Shown here one piece after another: positions 4,034 through 44,724 of a stretch of DNA of 64,000 nt. Origin of the DNA: an uncultured Oscillospiraceae bacterium. Its GTDB lineage: Bacteria > Bacillota > Clostridia > Oscillospirales > Acutalibacteraceae. How positions within the stretch are numbered: the first letter of the stretch is position 1; each line of letters begins with the position of its first letter. Below the pieces are notes generated by a model that did not search any database, was not told the origin of the DNA, and was given only the letters and a program-made list of their open reading frames with translations. Made by a program: the position numbers and the translations under genes. The DNA is taken from assembly GCA_959601025.1 (NCBI GenBank), contig CAUGOD010000002.1, positions 6,173 through 70,172 on the forward strand, read 5' to 3'.

Positions 4034-7000
4034 TTATTCCTTCTGTCCTTTCGACGGCTTGTTTACATGGACGATGATCGGCTGGGTGTAGCGGCGGTAA
4101 GGGCCGTAGGGAGAGCTGTTTTTATCGCACCGAAGGGCAGTAGACTGCTCGTACCACAGGAGGATGGCGCCATCGCCCGGCTCTTCCGCATACAGGCAAT
4201 TCCCCTCCGCACGGAGCCCGCCGCTCAGCACGGTGATCTGCGGGGAGACGAGGACGTCCGCCTGCGAGTAGGTGGTCATTACCGCCCGCAGCGGGCGGCT
4301 TTCCCCGACGCGGAGGTGAAGCTCCCCGCCGCCGGACCGGTCAAAGGACAGTTCCTTCATCCAGCCGCAGAAGGTGTGAACCTGATTGGTAAACAGCCCC
4401 GTCACGCCGGACAGGAAATACTCCCGGAAATCCATCCCGTTGTCAATGTAATACGTCCAGGAGGAAATGCCCCGGCACCACAGGTTATAAATAATATGGG
4501 AGAGGTTGGCGGAATGGTCATAGCGGGGGCTGAACTGGGTGGTGTGCAGCTGCAGGTTGGTCAGGATTTCGGAGAGGGAGAGGCGGCAGTCATGCCCGTA
4601 CAGACCGCGGGTAAAAACCGAGGCGCGGGGAATTTTCCGCCGGATGTGCTGTATCTGCGCGGTGCCGCCCACCACGTAGGAAACCCGATCCTCCATCCCG
4701 GCCTCTCGCGTCAGCTTTTCCAGCTGGTCGATGATCCGCTCCTCATCCTCGTAAACCACCAGAAACAGACGAAGGGACCGCGGGGCGAAAAAGCGGTAGA
4801 AGTCCTCCAGCAGGGCGGGATGGGTATCCAGGCATTCCAAATGCGGATTTTGATTATACCGGATTTTCCGAAGCTCCTCCCATGTATAATCCTCCACATT
4901 TCCCAATTTGTCAAGGGAGTGCCGTTCGATTTCCCGTTCCGGAAAGGCGATCAGCCGCCGATCCTTGGTAAAGAAAATATCCAGAATCGCAAATTCCGCG
5001 CCGCTGTCCTCGTACGCCGCGGCGGCCGCCTCCAGAGAATCCCAGGGATAGACCTGTTCATAGCCGTAGGAGATGACCCGCGGTGTGTGGAGCATTGTGC
5101 GGCCCCCATATTTTTCCACCGCCCCGGCCAGGCGTTCCGGATGATCCACCAGCAGTCCGGACGCGCCGCTGGTCAGCATACGGTGGTACCGGATATCCAG
5201 ATTCTCTTCCCCATGGAACTGCTGAAGCCAGACGGTGGTCTGCCGCAGCTGCAGCGCGGAGACGATGGAGCGGGGAGTATCCTCCGGCAGCATCAGGATG
5301 CGGATGTGGTTTTCGTTGCACAGCGCGTGCAGCTCGTCCGGAGAGGGAAGCTCATCCGTGAATTCCAGAATACCCCGCAGGCTGTAATACTGCTTATGGA
5401 CATGCCGGAGCAGGTCGGGCTTGGTGGACATCACGAAAACATCCTGAAAATTTTTCTCGTTCAGGTATCCCATCAGGGCGTCCACGGTTTCCTTATCCGA
5501 AACCGTGAATACCGGAAGAAGCTTCTGATAAATCTTTACAAACAGGCTGGAAAGCGTACCGAGAGGGGTTCCGGTCACACTGTACACGGTCAGGTTTTCA
5601 TGGAGCGCCAGCTGAACGCCTGTGGGATGCGAATCCCCCTGACAGAGACGGTTCAGCTCACTCTGGCTGCGGGGCCGGGCAATCACCGCCGGCGGCAGGA
5701 GGAAGGGGGACTCCGGCGGGGCGAATTCCAGCAGGTCGTTTTTGGAGGAGGACTCCGTCAGCATGGAGATGTCGGTATCGGTGAATTCCACATCGTCCAG
5801 AAACAGTCGCCCGATGGACGGCTTTTCCGTGTTGTTGATGCTGCGGAAAAAGAAATGCAGCCCCACGCCGGTGGTCAGCGATATCGTGTGGGTCTCGTCC
5901 TTGGGCACGAATTCGTCGAGCGGCAGACAGATGACCGCGCCGATGTTGCCGATGTCCACCGTTTTGGTGAACGTCTGCCACTGACTGTCCGTCAGGACAA
6001 TCTCTACTGTGACAAGGCTGGTGGCCTTCGCCCAGAAGGAAAGGTATTTCATCCCCTGGATGGAAAAATCCGGCCGGCGGCGCGCATAGCAGTCCACCCG
6101 CCAGTAGGAGGTAACGTTGAATTCCATTGCCAGAGAACGGGTGCCGCTGTGCCGGGGATAGGGTACCAGCTCAATGGTTTGCATGGAGCCATACACCCGG
6201 TCGGCCTCCCATTCCAGGCTGTCCCCCTCGAAATTGTCGAACACCCGGCGGAGAGGCTTTTGCCGGGTGACCTGCCGATCCTTCTGCTGGAAGCTGCCGG
6301 GGGAACGGCCGATCTGCCGGGTAAAGGCGCGGGAGAAGGAATGCACCGCCGCGTAGCCCAGCATATTGGAGACCTCGGTGATGCTCATATCGTCCTTGAG
6401 CAGCTCGATGGCCTTTTCAAACCGTTTGGTCAGGAAATAATCCCGCAGGGAGGTTCCGGTCGCTTCGGAAAAGGTGTGGGACAGGTAGGAATAGTTGTAG
6501 CCAAGCGCCTCGCTGATTTTGGAGACGTTCTTGAGATACAGGATGTTGGCGTCGATGTAGCGGATCACCTCGTCCACAACGCTTTCCCGGCCGCCGGCGG
6601 CGTGCGGCGCGGGCGCGGCTTCCCCCGCCCGGACGCAGCTGCGGTAAAAATAGATGAGAAGCAGCCGGAGCAGGAGCTCCAGCATGGACTCGTGAAACAC
6701 GTCCCCTGCGCGCAGTTCACCCGTCAGCGCGTTCCAGGCGCTGTAGGTATCGGCGCCGGTTTCCACGGGGGAGAGAAGGTAAAGGGGCAGGTTTTCCCGG
6801 ATAATCGCATCGTCCCCGATGGGGCGTCCGGATTCCTGGAAGGCGAACCGCACCTGAGAAAAGGACAGTCCGTTTTCAGCGTTCGGAACCAGCTCCACTC
6901 CGCTGTCTGAGAGGGCGAGAAAGGAGACGCCGCTTTTCAGCGGCTTCCGCTCGCCGGGAGCCCGCAGCTCCCCGCCGCCGGTGGCCACATAGAAAAGATC

Positions 7001-25384: not shown

Positions 25385-27901
25385 TTATTTCTTTTTCCTG
25401 CGCAGGGCCAGCAGGGTAACGCCGGCGGTCAGCAGCAGGGCCGCGGGGATTATCCGGACAGCCTCGCCGGTGTTCACCTGTCCGCCGCCCTCTCCGTCCA
25501 GAGTACGGGGCTCGGAACTAAACACGACCGAATCGACGTAGATGGTGCCCTTCCAGGCCTTGGTACTCTTATAATCCTCGGCGTTGAGCTGGAATTCCAC
25601 GCCGCGGGCCATCGCTTTTTCATAGGAGGAGATATCCACGTTGTACATGTGGGCGCCTTTTTTGATGCTGACCAGCTGGTACCAGCTCTCTCCCCAGTCG
25701 GGATCGCCCAGAATCACCCGCAGGACGCAGTCCACGTCGGAGTTCATCCAGAAGGAGAGGTAATTGGTGTCCTCGTTCAGGTAGAACCAGTCGTCATAGG
25801 AGGCGGGCTCCATCACCCACTGTGTTTTTGTCCAGTCGCCCTCCATGTTCACCATCATCTTCAGGCTCCGCTTTCCGCTGTATACGGGAGAGGTAACCAG
25901 ATCGAAATGCTTGCCCTGCTTCATATAGGGACCGACCTTCGGGGTGAGTTCCCCTTCCTCAAAATCGGTGATCGGCAGGATCACGACGGCGGGCTTGGTG
26001 GTTTCGGTCGCGGAGGGAGCGGTGGGCACGACCGGCTCCTCGCCCGGCAGGGCGCGGGGGGTATCGGTCAGGACGACCGAATCCATATACCCGAAGCCGG
26101 AGAAGGGCTTGGGCGCGGCGGCGTAGTATTCGCCCTTCAGCTGAATCAGAAGGCGGGAGAAACCGCGGAAGGCGGAGTCCGAAACGTCGATGTTGTACAT
26201 ATGCGTACCCGCCTTGATGGAAAGGTCATAGTATTCGTCGCCGTTCCAGTCGATATCGGCCAGCTGCAGCTTCGCCGTGCAGTCCACGTCGGAGCTCATC
26301 CAGAAGGAAAGGTACAGCTTGTCGCTGTCCGGAAAAACCGTGGCCTTGTCGATCATATAGGTGATGGTGGTGTATTGGTTCTCGTATTTCAGGGGCAGCT
26401 TCATGCTCTTGGAACCCTCAAACTTCAGATCGGACGCGGTTTCCACAGTAAGGCTGCCGTCCGTCGGCCAGCTGACTACGAACAGCGGGTCGCCGTCTTC
26501 AAAGCCGGTGATCGGGACGACCAGCGCTTCCGGCTCGGTGGGTTCGGTCTGGCTGGGCTGCGTGCTCTCGGAGGGCACGGTGGATTCCGTCGAGGGGGTG
26601 GTGGGCTGGTCGGCCGTTCCGCGCGGGGTGTCGGTGACGATTACGGAATCCAGATAGACATAGCCCGAATACGGGGCCTGCTCCGGAATGTTCCCGGACT
26701 TGCCGCCGTTGCTCCAGTTGTTGATCATGACGCCGCGGACGCCGGCAAAGGGGCAGTCGGAGATATCCACGTTGTACAGGCGCGCGCCCTGCTGGATGTT
26801 GACGATGTAGTATTTATCGCCGTTCCAGTTGCTGTCGCAGAGCTGGATTTCCACCGCGGCGTCCACTTCGGAATCCGCCCAGAAAGAGAGGTATTTCTTC
26901 GCCATGCCTTCGGGGAAGGTCACGGTGCTGCCGATTGCATAGGTGATTGTACTCCACTGGTTCTGGCTTTCGAGCTTCAGCTTCAGGCTGCCGGCGCCCT
27001 CGTATTTCGGGCTGGATGCGGCTTCCACGGTAACGCTGCCGTCATCGGGATAGTTTACCTTGATCTGTCCGGCATCCTCACAATCCGCGATCACGACGCT
27101 TTTGGCGCCGGTCTGCGTGGGCTCCGTGGTCGGTGTGGTTTCGGAGGAGGTCGTCTCCGTCGGCTGGGCGGACTGCGTGGCTTCGCTTGTCTGGGAGCTG
27201 GAAGAGCTTGCTGTGCTTGCCGTAGTGGCTTCCGTCGTGGTGGTTACGGCCGCTTCGCTGGTGGAGGTGGTCGTCTCGCTGGGAAGTTCGCGCGGGATGT
27301 CGGTGACGATTACGGAATCCAGATAGACATAGCCCGAATACGGGGCCTGCTCCGGAATGTTCCCGGACTTGCCGCCGTTGCTCCAGTTGTTGATCATGAC
27401 GCCGCGGACGCCGGCAAAGGGGCAGTCGGAGATATCCACGTTGTACAGGCGCGCGCCCTGCTGGATGTTGACGATGTAGTATTTATCGCCGTTCCAGTTG
27501 CTGTCGCAGAGCTGGATTTCCACCGCGGCGTCCACTTCGGAATCCGCCCAGAAAGAGAGGTATTTCTTCGCCATGCCTTCGGGGAAGGTCACGGTGCTGC
27601 CGATTGCATAGGTGATTGTACTCCACTGGTTCTGGCTTTCGAGCTTCAGCTTCAGGCTGCCGGCGCCCTCGTATTTCGGGCTGGATGCGGCTTCCACGGC
27701 AACGCTGCCGTCATCGGGATAGTTTACCTTGATCTGCCCGGCATCCTCACAATCCGCGATTACGACGCTTTTGGCGCTGGTCTGCGAGCCGTCGCCGAGC
27801 GCGGAAAACGCCGGCAGGGCGGTAACGGCAAACGAGAAAACGGCGCTGATCGCCAGTACGGCTTTCACCAGTTTGCGGGGCTTTTTTTCCAGTTTATCCA
27901 T
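25385..27901 (-). CDS. secreted membrane-anchored protein (838 aa) with four CBM-like beta-sandwich modules (two identical) separated by Thr/Ser/Pro/Glu linkers
   Basis: Start MDKLEKKPRKLVKAVLAISAVFSFAVTALPAFSA with RBS GGAAGGAG. Modules of ~160 aa (…YLSFWADSEVDAAVEIQLCDSNWNGDKYY…YVYLDSVIVTD). C-terminus …GQVNTGEAVRIIPAALLLTAGVTLLALRRKKK (hydrophobic anchor plus basic tail). The 25367..27931(+) track ORF is a Gly/Arg-rich antisense artefact. Confidence 0.75.
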   Translation of the reverse strand: MDKLEKKPRKLVKAVLAISAVFSFAVTALPAFSALGDGSQTSAKSVVIADCEDAGQIKVNYPDDGSVAVEAASSPKYEGAGSLKLKLESQNQWSTITYAIGSTVTFPEGMAKKYLSFWADSEVDAAVEIQLCDSNWNGDKYYIVNIQQGARLYNVDISDCPFAGVRGVMINNWSNGGKSGNIPEQAPYSGYVYLDSVIVTDIPRELPSETTTSTSEAAVTTTTEATTASTASSSSSQTSEATQSAQPTETTSSETTPTTEPTQTGAKSVVIADCEDAGQIKVNYPDDGSVTVEAASSPKYEGAGSLKLKLESQNQWSTITYAIGSTVTFPEGMAKKYLSFWADSEVDAAVEIQLCDSNWNGDKYYIVNIQQGARLYNVDISDCPFAGVRGVMINNWSNGGKSGNIPEQAPYSGYVYLDSVIVTDTPRGTADQPTTPSTESTVPSESTQPSQTEPTEPEALVVPITGFEDGDPLFVVSWPTDGSLTVETASDLKFEGSKSMKLPLKYENQYTTITYMIDKATVFPDSDKLYLSFWMSSDVDCTAKLQLADIDWNGDEYYDLSIKAGTHMYNIDVSDSAFRGFSRLLIQLKGEYYAAAPKPFSGFGYMDSVVLTDTPRALPGEEPVVPTAPSATETTKPAVVILPITDFEEGELTPKVGPYMKQGKHFDLVTSPVYSGKRSLKMMVNMEGDWTKTQWVMEPASYDDWFYLNEDTNYLSFWMNSDVDCVLRVILGDPDWGESWYQLVSIKKGAHMYNVDISSYEKAMARGVEFQLNAEDYKSTKAWKGTIYVDSVVFSSEPRTLDGEGGGQVNTGEAVRIIPAALLLTAGVTLLALRRKKK
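26627..27110. repeat. intragenic direct repeat, copy 1 (~480 bp)
   Basis: Near-identical to 27296..27790, offset 669 bp (223 codons, in frame). Only a handful of mismatches near the 3' end. Encodes the duplicated CBM-like module. Confidence 0.85.
27296..27790. repeat. intragenic direct repeat, copy 2 (~480 bp)
   Basis: See copy 1. Sequence identity read directly by comparing 26631-27110 with 27300-27780. Confidence 0.85.
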
Positions 27902-31718: not shown

Positions 31719-32447
31719 CTATACCGTTGCCGCCGGGGAAAGAAGCACGGCCGGGTCGAGCGGCAGCGTCCGTGCGCCCTCCTCCACACAGGCGAGGACC
31801 GGCAGACCGGTCAGCCGTTCGATCATCCGCCGGTTGTCCTCGTGCATCGTGTCGCCGGGTCGAAAGCCGTTCAGGAAAAAGCCCACGGTTCGGAAGCCGT
31901 TTGCGCGGGCGTATTCCGCCGTCAGCACCGCCGCGTTGATGCTCCCCAGCCCGGAGGGGGCGACGATCAGGAGGGGGAAGCCGGTCAGGCGGATCACGTC
32001 GGCCAGCATCAGGAGCGCGTCCCCGTCCCGCAGGGGGCAGACGATCCCGCCGCTCCCCTCGGCCGCGACAAAGGGAAAGCGGGCCGCCGCCCGGCGGAAG
32101 GCGGCCTCCACCACGGCAAGCTCGACGGGCCGCCCCTCCAGCCGGGCGGCCAGATGGGGGGAGAGGGCTTCCCGGTAGATGTACGGCACGAATTCCGCCG
32201 GGTCGCCCGGAATACCCGCCGTGCGGTACACCTCCGCCGCGTCGCCGGGGATCAGCCGGCCGGAGCCGTCGTCCGCCGGTTCCGCCCCGCTGAGGGCGGC
32301 CTTAAAATAGCCCGCGTCGATCCCCTGCTCCCGCAGCCGCTTGACCAGCAGGGCGGTCACGTAGGTTTTCCCCACGTCGGTGCCGGTGCCGGTTACAAAA
32401 CCCCCCCGCGGCTGAGGGGAAAAGGCATTTTCGTTCATTTCGTGCAT
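31719..32447 (-). CDS. bioD: dethiobiotin synthase
   Basis: P-loop GFVTGTGTDVGKTYVTALL and overall BioD pattern. Start MHEMNENAF; its start overlaps the bioB stop by ~13 nt. The track ORF is N-terminally over-extended. Confidence 0.85.
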   Translation of the reverse strand: MHEMNENAFSPQPRGGFVTGTGTDVGKTYVTALLVKRLREQGIDAGYFKAALSGAEPADDGSGRLIPGDAAEVYRTAGIPGDPAEFVPYIYREALSPHLAARLEGRPVELAVVEAAFRRAAARFPFVAAEGSGGIVCPLRDGDALLMLADVIRLTGFPLLIVAPSGLGSINAAVLTAEYARANGFRTVGFFLNGFRPGDTMHEDNRRMIERLTGLPVLACVEEGARTLPLDPAVLLSPAATV

Positions 32448-33433
32448 ACCTTGCTCCCCTCGTCCGCCTCGGCTACCTCGAAGCCCAGCTCCCGCACCAT
32501 GGCTTTGTCCTCGTCGATCCCGACGCCGGCGGTGGTGAGCATATCCCCGGTGATGGCGGCGTTCGCTCCCGCGCGGAACACCCGCCGCCCCCGGTCGGGG
32601 AGCAGGCCCCGACCGCCCGCAAGGCGGATTTCCGCTTCCGGCAGAAGGAAGCGGAAAACGGCGGCGGCCCGGCAAACCTCCTCCTCGGAAAGGATGGGCC
32701 GTCCGGCGAGCGGGGTGCCGGGGATGGGATTCAGCACATTGAGCGGAACCGAGCGGATGCCCAGTTCCCGCAGCTCCAGCGCCAGGTCCACCCGGTCCTC
32801 CTCTGTTTCCCCCAGCCCGAGGATGCCGCCGCTGCATACCCGCAGCCCGGCCCGCTGCGCGTCCCGGATGGTACGGAGCTTATCATCGTAGGTGTGGGTG
32901 GTGCAGATGGAGGGAAAAAAGCGGCGGGAGGTCTCTAGGTTATTGTGGTACCGGGTGACGCCGGCTTCTTTCAGGGCGCGGAGCTGTTCGTAGGTCAGCA
33001 GGCCATGGGAGGCGCAGAGCGCGATGCCGCCCGCGTCCCGCATCCGGCGGTAGCTTTCGCACAGCGTGGCGGTTTCCCCGTCGCTCAGGCGGCGGCCGGA
33101 GGTGACCACCGAATACCGCAGAACCCCTTTGCGGGCGTTGTATGCCGCGCCCTCCAGCAGCTGGTCCCCGTCCAGCAGGGGATAGCTTTCCACCCCGGCG
33201 GGGTAATGACAGGACTGGGCGCAGTACCGGCAATCCTCCGTACACCGACCGCTTTTGCCGTTGACGATGGTGCACAGGTCGAAGCGGTTCCCGCAGAAGC
33301 GCGCCCGCAGCTCGTCCGCCGCCGAGAAAAGCGCGTCCGGTTCTCCCGTCCGCAGCAGGGCGAGCGCATCGTCCCGGGTCAGGGATTCCCCGTCCAGCAC
33401 CTTGTTTTTACAGGCCGTGATCGTATTCGTCAT
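32435..33433 (-). CDS. bioB: biotin synthase (radical SAM)
   Basis: CxxxCxxC radical-SAM motif (CTEDCRYCAQS) and BioB-like C-terminal half. Start MTNTITACKNK with RBS AAGGGAG. Confidence 0.9.
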   Translation of the reverse strand: MTNTITACKNKVLDGESLTRDDALALLRTGEPDALFSAADELRARFCGNRFDLCTIVNGKSGRCTEDCRYCAQSCHYPAGVESYPLLDGDQLLEGAAYNARKGVLRYSVVTSGRRLSDGETATLCESYRRMRDAGGIALCASHGLLTYEQLRALKEAGVTRYHNNLETSRRFFPSICTTHTYDDKLRTIRDAQRAGLRVCSGGILGLGETEEDRVDLALELRELGIRSVPLNVLNPIPGTPLAGRPILSEEEVCRAAAVFRFLLPEAEIRLAGGRGLLPDRGRRVFRAGANAAITGDMLTTAGVGIDEDKAMVRELGFEVAEADEGSKVCTK

Positions 33434-33461
33434 AGCGTTTTCTCCCTTTCCGCGTGGGTGT

Positions 33462-34049
33462 TCAGCCGAGATACCGGCCGATTTTCGCCCGGTCCAGCTG
33501 GCGGCCGGCCAGCGCGGCCACCGCGCAGAGCAGGAGGTCGCCCGGCATATCCAGCGGGAAGCAGGACAGCAGGATGATCCACAGGGAGGCGGGCGTGCCA
33601 AGATAGAAGTTCAGGATACAGTATTTATACGCGATCCCGATTGCATAGGTCACGACAAAGCCGCCGAGGGCCGCCAGAAAAAAGGAAAGCCAGGTTGATT
33701 TCCGCATCCGGCGGCGGAGGACGCCGGTGACGAAAGCGGCGGCAATGAAACCGAGCAGGTAGCCGAAGCTGGGACGGACGACATACCCGATCCCGCCGCC
33801 CGCGGCGAAGATCGGCGCCCCGACCAGCCCCAGCGCGACATAGACCGCGACCGACAGCGCGCCCAGCTTCGGGCCGAGCAGTATCCCCGCGAGCACCACG
33901 AAGAAAAACTGCAGGGTAAAATAATCCATAAAGGGTACCGGAATCTGGATGAACGCGCCCACCGCCACCAGCGCGGTGAACAGGGCGCAGAGCGCGAGAT
34001 GGACGGTGGAAAGCCGTCGGCTGGATTTTTTAACAGCGTTGTTTTCCAT
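33462..34049 (-). CDS. bioY: biotin transporter, ECF-type S component
   Basis: 195-aa polytopic membrane protein. BioY-like (…FIQIPVPFMDYFTLQ…GYLLGF…). Confidence 0.85.
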   Translation of the reverse strand: MENNAVKKSSRRLSTVHLALCALFTALVAVGAFIQIPVPFMDYFTLQFFFVVLAGILLGPKLGALSVAVYVALGLVGAPIFAAGGGIGYVVRPSFGYLLGFIAAAFVTGVLRRRMRKSTWLSFFLAALGGFVVTYAIGIAYKYCILNFYLGTPASLWIILLSCFPLDMPGDLLLCAVAALAGRQLDRAKIGRYLG

Positions 34050-34091
34050 AACGAAGCGTTCCTTTCTATTGAGCTTTCCGAGGACGGGCCG

Positions 34092-35057
34092 TCACAGGGC
34101 GGAACCGACGACCGAGACCTCCCCGGCCTTCAGGACGATCCGCCCGCCGCCGGTTTCCACCAGCAGACGGCCCTCGTCGTCGATCGCCGCGGCCCGGCCG
34201 CGCCGCAGCGCGTCCCCCTGCCGGAAGGCGATCTCTTTTCCGAGGATCAGGGAGCGGGCGCGGTATTCCTCCATCAGGGCGGGGGAGGACAGATTCTCCG
34301 CCAGCCGGAAAAGCTCCGCGGCGATGCGGGCGGCCAGCTCGTTGCGGGTGATCTGTCCCGGCTGCAGGGAGCCGGCGACGCCGGCCAGCTCATCGGGGAA
34401 ATCCGTCGTCCGGAGGTTGACGCCGATGCCCACGATCACCGCCTCCGCCATCCCGCTTTCAAAATCGCTGATCGCTTCGGTGAGAATGCCGCTGATCTTC
34501 CGCCCATCCAGAAACAGGTCGTTTACCCACTTGATCTCCGGGCGCTTGCCGGTCAGCGCTTCCGCCGCGCGGCAGACGGCCACCGCCGCCGCCACGGTTA
34601 CCGGCAGCGCGTCCTGCAGGGTGCTGTCCGGACGCAGCAGGACGCTCATATACAGGCCGGTCCCCGCGGGGGAGTAAAAGCTCCGGCCCCGGCGGCCCCG
34701 TCCGGCGGTCTGCTTCTCCGCCAGCACCAGCGTGCGGTGGGGCGCTCCCTCGGCCGCCAGCCGTTTAGCGGCGGAATTGGTGGAATCCACCGTTTGCAGC
34801 ACCGTGACCGGGCTGTCCCGGTATTTCTCCGGCAGGTAGAGCGCCACTCCCTGCGCCGAGAGTACGTCGGTATCCGGCGCCAGCCGGTATCCCCGGTTCC
34901 GCACCGCCTCGATGCGGTAGCCGTCCTCCTGCAGGCTGCGGACCGCTTTCCATACCGCCGCGCGGGTAATATGCAGCGTGTCGGCCAGTTCCTGGCCCGA
35001 AACCGCCCGGTCCCGGTTTTCCTCCAGTACCCGGATCAATACGTCCTTTGTCGACAT
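34092..35057 (-). CDS. birA: bifunctional biotin--[acetyl-CoA-carboxylase] ligase / biotin operon repressor
   Basis: N-terminal wHTH (…LEENRDRAVSGQELADTLHITRAAVWKAV…) plus BPL catalytic domain (…GRGRRGRSFYSPAGTGLYMSVLL…KWVNDL…). Confidence 0.85.
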   Translation of the reverse strand: MSTKDVLIRVLEENRDRAVSGQELADTLHITRAAVWKAVRSLQEDGYRIEAVRNRGYRLAPDTDVLSAQGVALYLPEKYRDSPVTVLQTVDSTNSAAKRLAAEGAPHRTLVLAEKQTAGRGRRGRSFYSPAGTGLYMSVLLRPDSTLQDALPVTVAAAVAVCRAAEALTGKRPEIKWVNDLFLDGRKISGILTEAISDFESGMAEAVIVGIGVNLRTTDFPDELAGVAGSLQPGQITRNELAARIAAELFRLAENLSSPALMEEYRARSLILGKEIAFRQGDALRRGRAAAIDDEGRLLVETGGGRIVLKAGEVSVVGSAL

Positions 35058-35238: not shown

Positions 35239-35670
35239 TTACATCGCGTAAATGCGGTCGCTGTCCAGAATTTCTATCCCGTTTTTCCGCAGGACCTCGA
35301 TCGCCGCGTCATTGTTCTCCACCCGGAGGATGACGCAGGCGCGCCCCTCGTCCCGGGAGATAAAGGCGTACATGTACTCCACGTCGATCGCCGCGTTGGC
35401 CAGCGCCTTCATCGCGACGGCGAATCCGCCGGGCTGGTCGGGAATGCCGACGGCAATCACGTTGGTCAGGGAAACGGTCAGGCCGGCGGCCTTTAGCGCG
35501 GCTTCCGCTTCATCGGGCTTATTTACGATCAGGCGGAGGATGCCAAAATCCGTGGTGTCCGCAATAGACAGGGCGCGGATGTCGATCCCCGCGGCGGCGA
35601 TCACAGCGGTGATTTCCGCCAGCCGGCCGGATTTATTTTCCACAAAAATGGAGATTTGCTTAATGGACAT
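35239..35670 (-). CDS. ACT domain-containing protein (two ACT modules)
   Basis: 143 aa: MSIKQISIFVENKSGRLAEITAVIAAAGIDIRALSIADTTDFGILRLIV… ACT fold signature. RBS GGGAGG. Confidence 0.75.
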   Translation of the reverse strand: MSIKQISIFVENKSGRLAEITAVIAAAGIDIRALSIADTTDFGILRLIVNKPDEAEAALKAAGLTVSLTNVIAVGIPDQPGGFAVAMKALANAAIDVEYMYAFISRDEGRACVILRVENNDAAIEVLRKNGIEILDSDRIYAM

Positions 35671-35821
35671 ACAAAAAGCCTCCCTTTGTCAGTTTTTTAT
35701 TTTTCCGGGCGGCGCTCCGGCGCAGCAGAAGATTCTGTGCGTAAAGCGCGGCTTTTCCAGACATACTAAAACGATGCAGCCGGCCGTCCCGCTGAAACGC
35801 GGGAGACGACGCGGGGGCCAA

Positions 35822-36010
35822 GCGCCGCCTGGCCTGCTTCTCTGCCAGCGCTCTCCGGCGGCGCTTTTGAGAAATGCTGTCGCATTTCTCCGAAACGTCT
35901 GCATACCGTAACGCCGCCTGGCCGGGTTCTCTGCCAACGCTTTCCGGCGGCGCTTTTGAGAAATACCTGCCGGTATTTCTCCTTGCTGTCATTATATCAT
36001 AGCGCCGCGG
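35822..36010. repeat. intergenic palindromic repeat array (two ~90-bp units) upstream of the ADH gene
   Basis: Each unit has AGCGCCGCC…CCGGGTTCTCTGCC…TTTCCGGCGGCGCT (outer inverted repeat) followed by the perfect palindrome GAGAAATGCTGTCGCATTTCTC / GAGAAATACCTGCCGGTATTTCTC, then CATTATAYCATAGCGCCGC. Confidence 0.7.
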
Positions 36011-36041
36011 GGCGGACAAGAGGGAGATTGAACGCCCCGGA

Positions 36042-37148
36042 CTATTTCACGAAAAGAGAGCGGAACAGCGCGGCGGCGTTATCCGGTGTGAAGCCGCCGG
36101 GGGTGCGGGTGAAATTTTTCAGTCCTTCCCAGCGTTCGGCATACCCGGCGATCTGTTCCTCCGTCATGGTCACGTCGTACCGGATCAGCGCGTCCAGCGA
36201 GGCGAACAGACGATCCCGGCCGCCGCAGAGAGCGAAAAGCCGCTCCGCCCGGTCGGGGGCGTATTTCTCCGCCCGGCGGAGAAGGGCGGGCAGGAAGGCC
36301 GCGCAGGCCATCCCATGGGGAACGCCGTATTCCTCTGTAAGAATGTAACCCAGCGGATGGGGAAAGGCCGTGCCGCAGGCGTTGAGTACCATCCCGGCCC
36401 AAAGGGAGCCGTAGTACAGCCTCTCCCGCATCCCGGCGCCGGGGAGTCCGTCGTTTTCCGCCAGCCAGTGCAGGCCGCCTGAGACCATGGTCAGCGCCCG
36501 CTCCCCAAAGGCGGCGCTTACGTCGCCGCAGCCGGGGGAAAGCCAGCCCTCCGCCACATGGGAGAAAGCGTCCAGCGCGGTGGAAACCGTGGTTTCCCGG
36601 GAAGAGGAGTGGGTATAGCGGGGATCGGCGAACACATACCGGGCATAGCACTGCGGGTGGGTGACGCTCTTCTTGCGTTTCTCCCGGTCCAGCGTGAGGA
36701 CGGCGACCGCGCTTACCTCGCTGCCGGTGCCGGCGGTGGTTCCCACCAGCGCCAGGGGAAGGGAGGGACGGCGGAGCTGTCCCGCCATCAGCTCATAGCC
36801 CTTGGTGGCATTGTTGCCGGCGAGCCAGGCGGCCGCCTTGGCCGCGTCCATCACGGAGCCGCCGCCGATGCCGACGATAAACTCGGATCGGCAGGTTTCC
36901 GCCGTGAAGGCCGCGGCCTGGCACTGGGAAAGCAGCGGATTGGCGCTGACACCGGGAAAAACCGTCGCGTCTACGCCGGCGGCTTCCAGCGTGTTCAGCA
37001 TATCGTCCAGCGCGCCGCTCTCTTTGGCGGCATGGGCGCCGGTGATCACCAGGCAGCGCCGCCCCAGCCCCCGCAGCCGGGAGCCCTCCTTTTTGACGCA
37101 GCCCTCGCCGCTGAAAGCCTGTACCGGCATGTGGAATGTAAAATCCAT
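36042..37148 (-). CDS. iron-containing alcohol dehydrogenase family protein
   Basis: 368 aa; GGGS-type nucleotide-binding motif (VGIGGGSVMDAAKA) and Fe-ADH-like His cluster region. RBS AGGAAGGA. Confidence 0.85.
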   Translation of the reverse strand: MDFTFHMPVQAFSGEGCVKKEGSRLRGLGRRCLVITGAHAAKESGALDDMLNTLEAAGVDATVFPGVSANPLLSQCQAAAFTAETCRSEFIVGIGGGSVMDAAKAAAWLAGNNATKGYELMAGQLRRPSLPLALVGTTAGTGSEVSAVAVLTLDREKRKKSVTHPQCYARYVFADPRYTHSSSRETTVSTALDAFSHVAEGWLSPGCGDVSAAFGERALTMVSGGLHWLAENDGLPGAGMRERLYYGSLWAGMVLNACGTAFPHPLGYILTEEYGVPHGMACAAFLPALLRRAEKYAPDRAERLFALCGGRDRLFASLDALIRYDVTMTEEQIAGYAERWEGLKNFTRTPGGFTPDNAAALFRSLFVK

Positions 37149-37309
37149 CTGTTTTCATCCTTCCTGACGGGGAGAAACAGCAAAGCACGGCAAAGGAAGC
37201 CGATTCCTGACACAGGAAGCCACTTCCCGGAACAGGAAGCCACTTCCCCCCTTGTTTTTTAAAAAGAAATAGTCTATATTATTAACGTTGTTCTGGATCC
37301 TGTGCCGGT

Positions 37310-37440
37310 CGTTTGCTTGCGGCGCAATTGAGAAATACCGATCGGTATTTCTCCCAACCGACATTATACCATAGCGCCGCCCAACCGGGTTCTCTGCCGG
37401 CGTTTTCCGGCGGCGCCTAACGACATTATACCATAAAGAT
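37310..37440. repeat. third copy of the palindromic repeat family, on the other side of the ADH gene
   Basis: GCGGCGCAATTGAGAAATACCGATCGGTATTTCTCCCAACCGACATTATACCATAGCGCCGCCCAACCGGGTTCTCTGCCGGCGTTTTCCGGCGGCGCC…ACATTATACCATAAAG. Same modules as 35822..36010. Confidence 0.7.
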
Positions 37441-39940: not shown

Positions 39941-40615
39941 ATGGGACTTTTTGATAAACGAAAAAGCCGGAAAAGGCAGCGGCGGGAATGCGGCGGCCCC
40001 GTGTGCTATGACGAGAACGACTGCGCGGCGCTGGAGGAATACATAGGAAATACCTTCGGATCGTTCTCCAACGTGTTCCATGAGATTGTTTCACCGGATA
40101 TCCATGTGGATATCGCCGTTGTCGAGCCTAACGAGCGGTTTGACGGCTATACGCTGGTGACGATGGGCATGGGCGCCCGCCGCATGAATATACCGGACGA
40201 CGCGCCGGAATCGCTGGCGTACGTCGAGCTGGCGGCCTACCTGCCGAAGGACTGGAATCTGAAGAGCGGGGAGGAGAGCTGGTATTGGCCGATCCGCTGG
40301 CTCAAGCTTCTGGCCCGGCTGCCCCTGAACGAGGATTCCTGGCTGGGCGCCGGCCATACGGTCGCCAACGGAGGCCCTTTCGCGGAGGATACCGCCCTGG
40401 ACAGCGTTCTTCTGATCGACGCCATAGCCCCGGGGAATGAGCTGGTTCTCCCCGGCGGAAGAAAGATCAATTTTTACACCATGGTTCCTCTGTATGAGGA
40501 GGAATCGGTGTACAAGCAGCGGTACGGCGCGGAGGCGCTGCTGTCCCTGTTTGAGGAAAAGCAGCTGCCGTTTCCCCCGGTTATTGACAAGAACCGACGA
40601 AACGTTTGCCAATGA
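39941..40615 (+). CDS. suppressor-of-fused (SUFU)-like domain protein inserted between rnfC and rnfD
   Basis: 224 aa: MGLFDKRKSRKRQ… …GYTLVTMGMGARRMN…WYWPIRWLKLLARLPLNEDSWLGAGHTVANGGPF… pattern of bacterial SUFU-like proteins. Strong RBS GAGGGAGGAA; 30 nt after the rnfC stop. Confidence 0.7.
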   Translation: MGLFDKRKSRKRQRRECGGPVCYDENDCAALEEYIGNTFGSFSNVFHEIVSPDIHVDIAVVEPNERFDGYTLVTMGMGARRMNIPDDAPESLAYVELAAYLPKDWNLKSGEESWYWPIRWLKLLARLPLNEDSWLGAGHTVANGGPFAEDTALDSVLLIDAIAPGNELVLPGGRKINFYTMVPLYEEESVYKQRYGAEALLSLFEEKQLPFPPVIDKNRRNVCQ

Positions 40616-44440: not shown

Positions 44441-44472
44441 AAACTGCGCCTTGGTTAAAGGCGCTTTTTATG

Positions 44473-44549
44473 GCGGTATAGCTCAGTTGGCTAGAGCATG
44501 CGGTTCATACCCGCAGTGTCGTTGGTTCAAATCCGACTACCGCTACCAT
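44473..44549 (+). tRNA. tRNA-Met (CAT), elongator type
   Basis: GGCGGTATAGCTCAGTTGGCTAGAGCATGCGGTTCATACCCGCAG…CGCTACCA. Anticodon loop TTCATAC. Cloverleaf consistent; closely resembles Bacillus elongator tRNA-Met. Encoded CCA. Confidence 0.85.
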
Positions 44550-44553
44550 TTTG

Positions 44554-44627
44554 GCCCGATGGTCAAGCGGTTAAGACACCGCCCTTTCACGGCGGTAACA
44601 CGGGTTCGATTCCCGTTCGGGTCACCA
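44554..44627 (+). tRNA. tRNA-Glu (TTC)
   Basis: GGCCCGATGGTCAAGCGGTTAAGACACCGCCCTTTCACGGCGGTAACACGGGTTCGATTCCCGTTCGGGTCACCA. Nearly identical to Bacillus tRNA-Glu. Confidence 0.9.
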
Positions 44628-44647
44628 CGCAGCGGCGCTGCGTTTAC

Positions 44648-44724
44648 GGGCGTATAGCTCAGCTGGTTAGAGCGCTTGCTTCACACGCAAGAGGTCAGCG
44701 GTTCGAGTCCGTTTACGCCCACCA
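44648..44724 (+). tRNA. tRNA-Val (CAC)
   Basis: GGGCGTATAGCTCAGCTGGTTAGAGCGCTTGCTTCACACGCAAGAGGTCAGCGGTTCGAGTCCGTTTACGCCCACCA. Anticodon loop TTCACAC. Confidence 0.85.

Follow-up and report, generated by a model that had tools for sequence, protein, structure and literature searches.

A gene for an iron-containing alcohol dehydrogenase (ADH) on contig CAUGOD010000002.1 of an uncultured Oscillospiraceae bacterium (assembly GCA_959601025.1) is bracketed by two arrays of palindromic repeats, which raises the question of what these repeats are and why they are found on both sides of a single gene. Array 1 (35821–36001) and array 2 (37284–37435), both on the minus strand, lie within the 64,000-nt stretch analysed here (positions 6,173–70,172 of the contig), which is referred to below as the window. 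They belong to a dispersed family of small interspersed repeats, and we consider it probable (roughly 0.6) that the unit acts as a mobile promoter with a 5′ hairpin leader; array 2 would then drive the ADH gene and array 1 the adjacent gene for an ACT-domain protein.

The repeats had been described in an earlier note on this DNA as a novel palindromic family, and the three motifs that it listed are all present where it placed them, far beyond chance expectation. The palindrome GAGAAAT-N10-ATTTCTC occurs twice in the window (0.01 matches expected), with a third copy that has an 8-nt centre, and CATTATAYCATA occurs three times (0.11 expected). The last of the three motifs is the reverse complement of an extended −10 box, TATGRTATAATG (TGnTATAAT), a promoter nature that had been overlooked. 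A repeat search of the window gave 70–71-nt direct-repeat families with 67–80% identity and a start-to-start spacing of 89 bp, and a sensitive blastn search with the units gave no additional copies outside the two arrays in the window. A 13-mer within birA (34818–34830) resembling hairpin 1 of the unit (see below) was taken as a chance match (E = 0.065).

Structure of the repeat unit

On the strand of the downstream gene, the 89-bp unit consists of a 12-nt box, 8 nt (nCGTTyAG), hairpin 1, 3–4 nt, and hairpin 2, after which the next box follows directly. The typical box, TATGGTATAATG, is an extended −10 element (TGnTATAAT). Hairpin 1, located 8 nt past the box, has a perfect stem of 9–12 bp with a G..A tetraloop, and hairpin 2 is a GC-rich GCGCCGCC-N27-GGCGGCGC structure with a large loop. 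Units are arranged head to tail, with one to six per array and a box at every junction, and an array's first box is at the same time the −10 element of a resident promoter. Of 59 boxes, 41 have a perfect TATAAT hexamer and 56 have TG ahead of the hexamer. A −35 match of at least 4/6 was found for 13 of 30 first boxes, compared with 8% at random positions.

Hairpin 1 is preserved as a paired structure. At least seven stem variants of hairpin 1 were identified (GAGAAATGC, GAAAATGC, GAAAAACGC, GAAAATGCC, GAGAAATACC, GAGAAATAC, and GAGAAATGCC), each perfectly self-complementary, so that the earlier proposal of a hairpin preserved through compensating changes holds. The pairs of this stem comprise 460 Watson–Crick, three G–U, one A–C, and no other combinations; the non-Watson–Crick pairs (3 vs 1) are too few for a strand call from G–U and A–C counts. 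The loop does differ between the strands: it reads G..A on the gene strand in 39 of 51 cases (GACA, GAAA, GGGA, or GTAA in 38 of 51), and the two middle positions vary while the first G and the last A are kept on the gene strand only. This asymmetry points to folding of the gene strand, as RNA or as single-stranded DNA. When both strands of the window's repeats were folded, as the earlier note had proposed, the hairpins were more stable than shuffled sequence on either strand (z from −2.1 to −5.1). In a model-fitted alignment of 80 units that covers both hairpins, 96.7% of the cells are paired and double changes occur in 13 of 17 pairs; the 64 compensated cells compare with 7.9 in shuffles, none of 500 shuffles reached the observed value, and pairing falls to 35–62% when the partners are slid. 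No inner stem of hairpin 2 common to all units was found by RNAalifold and inspection, and GCCGGC..GCCGGC is present in some copies only.

The position of hairpin 1 directly past the −10 box is one that repressors typically occupy, and its perfect palindrome could thus be a double-stranded DNA operator at +1 for a global dimeric repressor, with the repeats being copies of a promoter–operator module. However, the stem variants differ in both sequence and length while all remain perfectly self-complementary, which fits selection for pairing over a fixed half-site, and the central four bases vary yet keep G1 and A4 on one strand only. An operator of this kind therefore appears improbable.

Two other readings of the unit were rejected. 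A 27-codon frame that starts from an ATG within hairpin 1 and spans the unit is not conserved, and a peptide was dismissed because the length variants of hairpin 1 (+2, −2, and +1 nt) shift the frame. The GC-rich hairpin was also considered as an intrinsic terminator on the plus strand, where it has a 27-nt loop and received no call in a terminator scan; TTTT follows it on this strand in units A and B of the window only, the family consensus being AATT, GGTA, or similar.

Dispersal upstream of unrelated genes

A scan of representative bacterial genomes with a pattern of hairpin 1 plus the beginning of hairpin 2 yielded approximately 35 loci in one metagenome-assembled genome (MAG), CAJJLZ01 (uncultured Ruminococcaceae), which represents a sister species of the window's, and one locus in each of three Candidatus Avimonas species; the remaining matches were scattered and chance-like. 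A unit profile search of CAJJLZ01 identified at least 70 units in approximately 38 arrays of one to six units with an 89-bp period. One of its loci (L052) is the orthologue of the window locus, with 86–90% nucleotide identity and with arrays at both sites that differ in unit number. A metagenome scan for the unit junction yielded 28 loci, including 15 contigs from ERZ827520, all with 4.0–4.4x coverage, which together carry at least 45 units and show the hairpin-2 loop of the window type (GGCAGAGAA). ERZ827520 also yielded a contig with an identical ADH, and we infer that the 15 contigs derive from the window's own species. A covariance model of the unit gave 80 matches, none of which is in the repeat-free relatives L011, L014, and L015.

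The unit search thus places the element at many other loci, both in the CAJJLZ01 MAG and in the contigs assigned to the window's species. The earlier note had regarded occurrence at this locus alone as fatal to its proposal, an objection that fails because the family is dispersed over many loci. These data indicate that the family is specific to a lineage of uncultured gut Clostridia, comprising the window's species, its sister species, and at least Candidatus Avimonas. Arrays were observed at the extreme ends of contigs in L022, L028, L038, L040, L044, L055, L057, L063, L071, L086, and L094. Many arrays being so placed, the repeat appears to break short-read MAG assemblies, and the copy numbers are therefore lower bounds.

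The arrays are strongly oriented with respect to their neighbours. A co-oriented gene start lies downstream of 27 of the 31 assessable arrays in CAJJLZ01, at a distance of 9–250 nt (binomial P = 1.7e-5), and of 22 of the 23 arrays of the window's species (binomial P = 2.9e-6); these two counts are not fully independent because some of the arrays are orthologous. Across both sets, 49 of 54 arrays are upstream of and co-oriented with a gene (the overall share is also given as about 88%), with array-to-gene distances of 9–320 nt. The downstream genes are diverse, and 17 of 20 tested proteins carry unrelated Pfam domains. They include genes for MutY, oligopeptidase F (PepF), a SpoU methylase, a PHP phosphatase, LytR, pyridoxal kinase, PSP1, MnmA, and RecG, as well as YjbR, AraC, CorA, a hydrolase, response regulators, LexA, MGMT, rpsT, and ADH. 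In several arrays hairpin 2 directly adjoins the ribosome-binding site, and in these cases the element must supply both the promoter and the whole leader. The units have a GC content of 48–63%, and that of the host contigs is 55–65%.

The near-consensus TGnTATAAT box in every unit, together with two stable hairpins, would also be expected if each unit were a small RNA gene with its own extended −10 element, hairpin 1 forming the body and hairpin 2 the terminator, and a few arrays indeed have no following gene (L025, L061, and L083). Nevertheless, hairpin 2 encloses a 27-nt loop and is followed by UAUGGUAUAAU and not by a U-tract, it adjoins the ribosome-binding site of the next gene in many arrays, and the orientation bias toward downstream genes is strong. 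We therefore regard a multicopy small RNA family as unlikely.

Gain and loss of units

Comparison of the two species provided one site that is filled in one of them and empty in the other. In L084 (window species) two units are present, whereas L058 (CAJJLZ01) contains a single native box, ...CGCTATAATG|GACATGG. The upstream sequence is conserved to the hexamer, the break occurs directly past TATAAT, and the native sequence resumes after a regenerated terminal box, indicating that arrays are gained or lost exactly at the −10 hexamer. Unit number also differs between orthologous arrays of the two species. For 59 of 76 units, the nearest hairpin-2 relative is at another locus of the same genome, and the window's own units match those of L084 at 0.89–0.95, whereas the best match among units in the other species reaches 0.82. 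This resemblance within genomes indicates continuing spread or conversion since the two species split.

These observations bear on the possibility that the units are a cis-regulatory structured RNA leader (riboswitch-like or protein-binding) of a regulon, conserved by function and immobile. The units do lie in 5′ leaders in the same orientation as the genes, their hairpins are conserved with covariation, and the hairpin-1 loops are GNRA-like. A regulon is difficult to reconcile with downstream genes as functionally unrelated as those for MutY, PepF, a SpoU methylase, CorA, LexA, rpsT, response regulators, ADH, and others, and a leader of this kind would not be expected to consist of one to six iterated units, each with its own −10 box. 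Unit number is unequal between sister species, with one site filled in one and empty in the other, copies are homogenised within the genome, and there is no Rfam match even at E ≤ 10. There is accordingly little chance that the family is an immobile RNA leader, and a mobile promoter with a hairpin leader is the preferred explanation.

Arrays and genes at the alcohol dehydrogenase locus

The ADH gene (36042–37148; 368 aa; Pfam Fe-ADH) is on the minus strand, is resident, and lies outside the repeats. The gene served by array 1, which encodes the ACT-domain protein (143 aa), is at 35239–35670 on the same strand, and genes for NusG_II, Hpre_diP_synt_I, and rnf functions start from 37476 on the plus strand, divergent from ADH. 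The earlier note was right that arrays lie on both sides of ADH, but it named the wrong side as upstream: since the genes are on the minus strand, 35821–36001 (its 35822–36010) lies downstream of ADH, in front of the ACT-domain gene, and it is 37284–37435 that is upstream of ADH.

Array 1 contains two full tandem units (unit A, 35821–35909; unit B, 35910–36001) with 89-bp spacing, which were detected by nhmmer (E = 6e-17 and 3e-16) and by the covariance model (89.7 bits). It lies past the ADH stop codon and ahead of the ACT-domain gene, within the promoter and 5′ leader of the latter. Unit B begins with the box TATGATATAATG (35990–36001), an extended −10 element (TGnTATAAT), which is followed by hairpin 1 (35958–35981; GAGAAATACC-GGCA-GGTATTTCTC, a perfect 10-bp stem) and hairpin 2 (35911–35953; GCGCCGCC-N27-GGCGGCGU, with GGCAGAGAACCCGG in the loop). 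Unit A consists of a decayed box, TACGGTATGCAG (35899–35910), hairpin 1 (35869–35890; GAGAAATGC-GACA-GCATTTCTC, a perfect 9-bp stem), and the GC-rich hairpin 2 (35822–35864). The first box of the array serves as the −10 of a native promoter whose −35 hexamer, TTGTCC, is at 36014–36019; in the promoter scan this promoter reads TTGTCC-17-TATAAT with TG and 10 of 12 matches.

Array 2 (nhmmer E = 1e-7 and 5e-13; covariance model 59.4 bits) is orthologous to L052 1658–2021 and is located between the divergent NusG_II start (37476) and ADH, in the ADH promoter and 5′ leader. Its order is box, hairpin 2, box, hairpin 1, decayed hairpin 2. The first box, TATGGTATAATG (37424–37435), has TGATATACT or TGCTATACT at the equivalent place in relatives and is followed by hairpin 2 of a unit without hairpin 1 (37374–37416; −24.7 kcal/mol). 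The second box, also TATGGTATAATG (37362–37373), precedes a hairpin 1 that forms a perfect 24-bp palindrome (GAGAAATACCGA/TCGGTATTTCTC; 37330–37353), and the decayed hairpin-2 remnant (about 37284–37325) merges into the conserved ADH-proximal leader.

In the relatives L011 and L014, whose ADH is 78–79% identical, the NusG_II/ADH/ACT order is kept with spacers of 229–407 and 85–141 bp, and the covariance model found no units in either. Their ACT-gene promoter, TTGCCC-17-TATAAT or TATACT, is the same promoter as that of the array 1 first box. Since these repeat-free relatives keep the gene order, ADH is the resident, and it is the repeats that were added later, at two promoter regions. That related repeats flank one gene on both sides had led to the suggestion of a mobile ADH cassette, or a recombination hotspot that captured ADH, with a proposal to see whether ADH is missing between the repeats in related strains. 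The gene is retained in the syntenic relatives that lack the repeats, which already refutes the suggestion; in addition, both arrays have the same orientation, each stands before a different gene, and the element precedes dozens of unrelated genes elsewhere. A cassette or hotspot now has next to no probability, and the two arrays are the promoter and leader regions of two consecutive minus-strand genes and not cassette ends. In ten contigs encoding an identical ADH protein, the arrays were identical in all ten, and thus no polymorphism within the species was found at this locus among them.

In L014 (4120–4160) and L011 (4130–4165), promoters look like the 3′ end of a unit joined to a box, with examples being CCCGGCGCCGGGGCGC-ATGGTATAAT in L011 and GAATCGCCGGGCAGGCGGCGC past the box in L014. 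These unit-like promoters may be remnants left by lost units, or they may represent the ancestral sequence from which the family arose.

Several other features were observed in the window. Three tandem 20-bp repeats (37188–37247; TRF score 68), each with a 13-bp palindrome, GGAAG-NNN-CTTCC, lie in the part of the ADH 5′ leader that separates array 2 from the start codon; the CAJJLZ01 orthologue L052 has none of these repeats. The relaxed form of this motif is enriched in the window (18 matches vs 1.9 expected), and the repeats might form a set of operators bound by an ADH regulator. In the window species, rnfC and rnfD are separated by a 224-aa SUFU-domain gene (39941–40615). The sister species lacks this gene, with L052 aligning across a ~760-bp gap, and so does L011, in which rnfC and rnfD are adjacent. 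Gene order diverges directly past the ACT-domain gene (window 32435–35057 vs L011 4762–6912 and L014 4785–6906), with birA-bioY-bioB-bioD in the window species and a 151-aa gene and one for an RsmF-type methyltransferase in the relatives with 78–79% identity. A direct repeat of at least 300 nt with 93% identity and 669-bp spacing (26570–27538) represents either a tandem duplication or repeated intragenic domains.

Variant units and a second module

Units without hairpin 1 (box, 7–9 nt, hairpin 2) are present in three taxa, at 37374–37435 of the window and at L029 6596–6658, L071 53–113, L081 4544–4606, and L091 1176–1238. The order box/hairpin 2/box/hairpin 1/hairpin 2 is common to the ADH leader of the window and the PHP-phosphatase leader of Avimonas. 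A unit in L035 (4848–4956) contains an extra perfect hairpin, ACCTTCCCGC-CTTTTC-GCGGGAAGGT, between hairpins 1 and 2, which is another sign of modular construction.

A second repeat of ~100 nt, module X (AATCCGGCAAAGCCGGATTCATCGAAAAACGATTGTCGG...CCTGCCGCTTTGCGGCACCATCGTTTTTCTCCTCGGCA), was found directly between −10 boxes, beside or within arrays, at L019 1395–1496, L052 1742–1831, L047 1245–1330, L025 6236–6314, L048 3031–3119, and L090 5378–5478. A decayed relative of it may be present at 35766–35820 of the window. Module X suggests that several cargo modules use one box-delimited system.

Comparison with known repeat classes

The family can be compared with the class of putative mobile promoters (PMPs), which are 50–100 nt in length, at least 80% identical, and located upstream of non-homologous genes in one genome, and which have been read as propagated promoters (Matus-Garcia, Nijveen and van Passel 2012, PMC3488235). 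The units fall within this operational definition: they lie upstream of unrelated genes within a genome, are 89 nt long, and are often 86–100% identical between loci over the compared 43–46-nt hairpin-2 segment. Function as a promoter is predicted from the sequence, namely from TGnTATAAT in 41–56 of 59 boxes and the −35 enrichment at first boxes. PMPs are an operational class without a defined anatomy, whereas the present family has a fixed modular unit, tandem iteration, −10 junctions, and hairpin covariation.

In architecture, the family most resembles, by analogy only, the pneumococcal BOX elements, which have the structure boxA-boxB(n)-boxC (Croucher et al. 2011, PMC3049150). Both are modular intergenic composites of Gram-positive bacteria with a variable tandem module, both would form stem-loops if transcribed, both are adjacent to or affect promoters, and both vary in length between genomes. 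There is, however, no sequence relationship between them, and the family has neither end modules nor terminal inverted repeats; the box that opens an array often closes it as well, every junction is an extended −10 box, and the arrays show a strong bias toward the orientation of the gene downstream. In Neisseria, the Correia (CREE/NEMIS) elements, whose terminal inverted repeats measure 26 bp and which duplicate a TA target and are inserted as single copies (PMC3049150, PMC10969869), are likewise small dispersed repeats able to give promoters to their neighbours and to form hairpins in mRNA, but those 26-bp ends, the TA duplication, and single-copy insertion were not seen in the 89-bp family.

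The earlier note had likened the repeat to repetitive extragenic palindromes (REPs) or MITEs (miniature inverted-repeat transposable elements). REPs are 20–40 nt in length with a conserved 5′ tetranucleotide, usually form inverted pairs at gene 3′ ends, and are mobilised by RAYT (PMC8049555, PMC3184786). The family shares with REPs, BIMEs, and REPINs the GC-rich palindromic hairpins, the many intergenic copies, and the near-identical populations within a genome; it differs in its 89-nt unit, which has two unlike hairpins without a GT(A/G)G-type head, contains a promoter box, and is repeated as direct tandem copies at 5′ ends. With regard to MITEs, no terminal inverted repeats were found at the ends of units or arrays (5′ TATGGTATAATG.. 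or nCGTTyAG.. vs 3′ ..GGGCGGCGCT), only the internal stems being inverted, and there are no site-specific target duplications, the same 12-nt promoter box being present everywhere. The units are highly base-paired and have 48–63% GC, close to the value of the host contigs.

A classical REP/BIME element, or a MITE with terminal inverted repeats, moved by RAYT or by an insertion-sequence transposase and resembling a promoter only incidentally, would account for a small, structured, dispersed intergenic repeat and for junction direct repeats that resemble target-site duplications. Against it stand unit and array ends without terminal inverted repeats or a GTAG-type head, units in direct tandem instead of inverted pairs, arrays at 5′ and not 3′ ends, and a direct repeat that is one and the same 12-nt promoter box at every site. 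The likeness drawn by the note is thus not upheld, and an origin from either class is very unlikely.

The repeat is not a CRISPR array, as had been noted earlier, because the entire 89-bp period is conserved and unique spacers are absent; the sole match to a CRISPR direct repeat (E = 2.1) is located elsewhere. At the Rfam gathering threshold the window gives three tRNAs only (a cluster at 44472–44721), and a search with the region and a consensus-like array at E ≤ 10 gave nothing relevant. Neither of two patterns searched as evidence of a phage vector had any match in viral contigs, and a full-text literature search for the box and hairpin sequences returned nothing relevant. The family, which was called novel on first description and has no match in Rfam, viral contigs, or the literature searched, is previously undescribed, and we place it among the small interspersed repeats and mobile promoters already recognised as a class in bacteria.

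Proposed mode of action and spread

The arrangement of the unit suggests how it could act. Each box would fire transcription 7–8 nt downstream, the best case being the first box with its −35 element. The predicted mRNA would begin 5′-AGGAGAAAUGC... (the predicted 5′ end at the boxes is also given as 5′-AGGAGAAAU...) and, with transcription presumed to start at each box, it would have a 5′-terminal stem-loop, situated within about 2 nt of the predicted end and overlapping GGAG. This layout would be that of 5′ mRNA stabilisers in Gram-positive bacteria, and the unit would represent a portable promoter plus leader. In Gram-positive bacteria, the leader stem-loops of ermC and aprE and the STAB-SD of cryIIIA are 5′ structures that protect mRNAs from 5′-end-dependent decay, and each is a single, gene-specific leader. 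The predicted transcript of the family is similar in that it would start 1–3 nt before a stable stem-loop overlapping GGAG, whereas the hairpin belongs to a repeated, apparently mobile unit and its stabilising effect is a prediction. Since the unit would regenerate the −10 box, insertion into a promoter could occur without silencing the gene. Spread would use the box as target or junction, through an enzyme or a template-switch mechanism, and arrays may grow and shrink by box-to-box recombination.

A narrower proposal, which we put forward tentatively and rate as possible rather than probable, is that the family is a promoter-homing, non-autonomous mobile element that integrates specifically at sigma-A −10 hexamers and whose insertion is self-compensating. 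Such an element may exploit single-stranded DNA or its own hairpins. Since every unit would bring along a new extended −10 box together with a leader that can be transcribed, the host gene would stay expressed after insertion, and as each insertion would recreate the target, 89-bp tandem arrays would result. The hairpin-2-only unit and the ~100-nt module X would then be alternative cargoes of one box-delimited system.

Several points weigh against the interpretation as a mobile promoter with a hairpin leader. The nucleotide sequence is the source of the predicted promoter activity, transcription starts, and mRNA stabilisation, no internal box has a −35 match, and four or five arrays are at gene 3′ ends or between convergent genes. 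The counts supporting the structure come from an alignment that was fitted to the structure model and contains related sequences, and the outer stem of hairpin 2 is almost invariant and hence gives little evidence of covariation. The perfect palindrome is also compatible with a protein-binding site in double-stranded DNA. As for mobility, a single clean filled/empty pair was found, and the ERZ827520 contigs were assigned to the window's species by their sample, coverage, and unit subtype and not through an assembly. The sharing of box variants between the first and terminal boxes of an array is not significant (permutation p = 0.065), and 17 of 37 arrays have no recognisable terminal box, so that a simple target-duplication model is not established. 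No mobilising enzyme turned up, although no transposase search was made.

Implications

At the ADH locus, the suggestion of a mobile cassette is removed. For annotation, the elements mark likely transcription start regions for dozens of genes of organisms not yet brought into culture, and the arrays explain many contig breaks in MAGs. Unit number varies between species, and the arrays may therefore serve as variable-number markers in strain typing, while the unit itself is a compact candidate part, combining promoter and stabiliser, for the engineering of Oscillospirales-like bacteria. If the interpretation is true, the family would be a concrete and anatomically defined mobile promoter that lives inside promoters with its own −10 box and 5′ hairpin leader, and the propagation of promoters would become directly testable in gut Clostridia.

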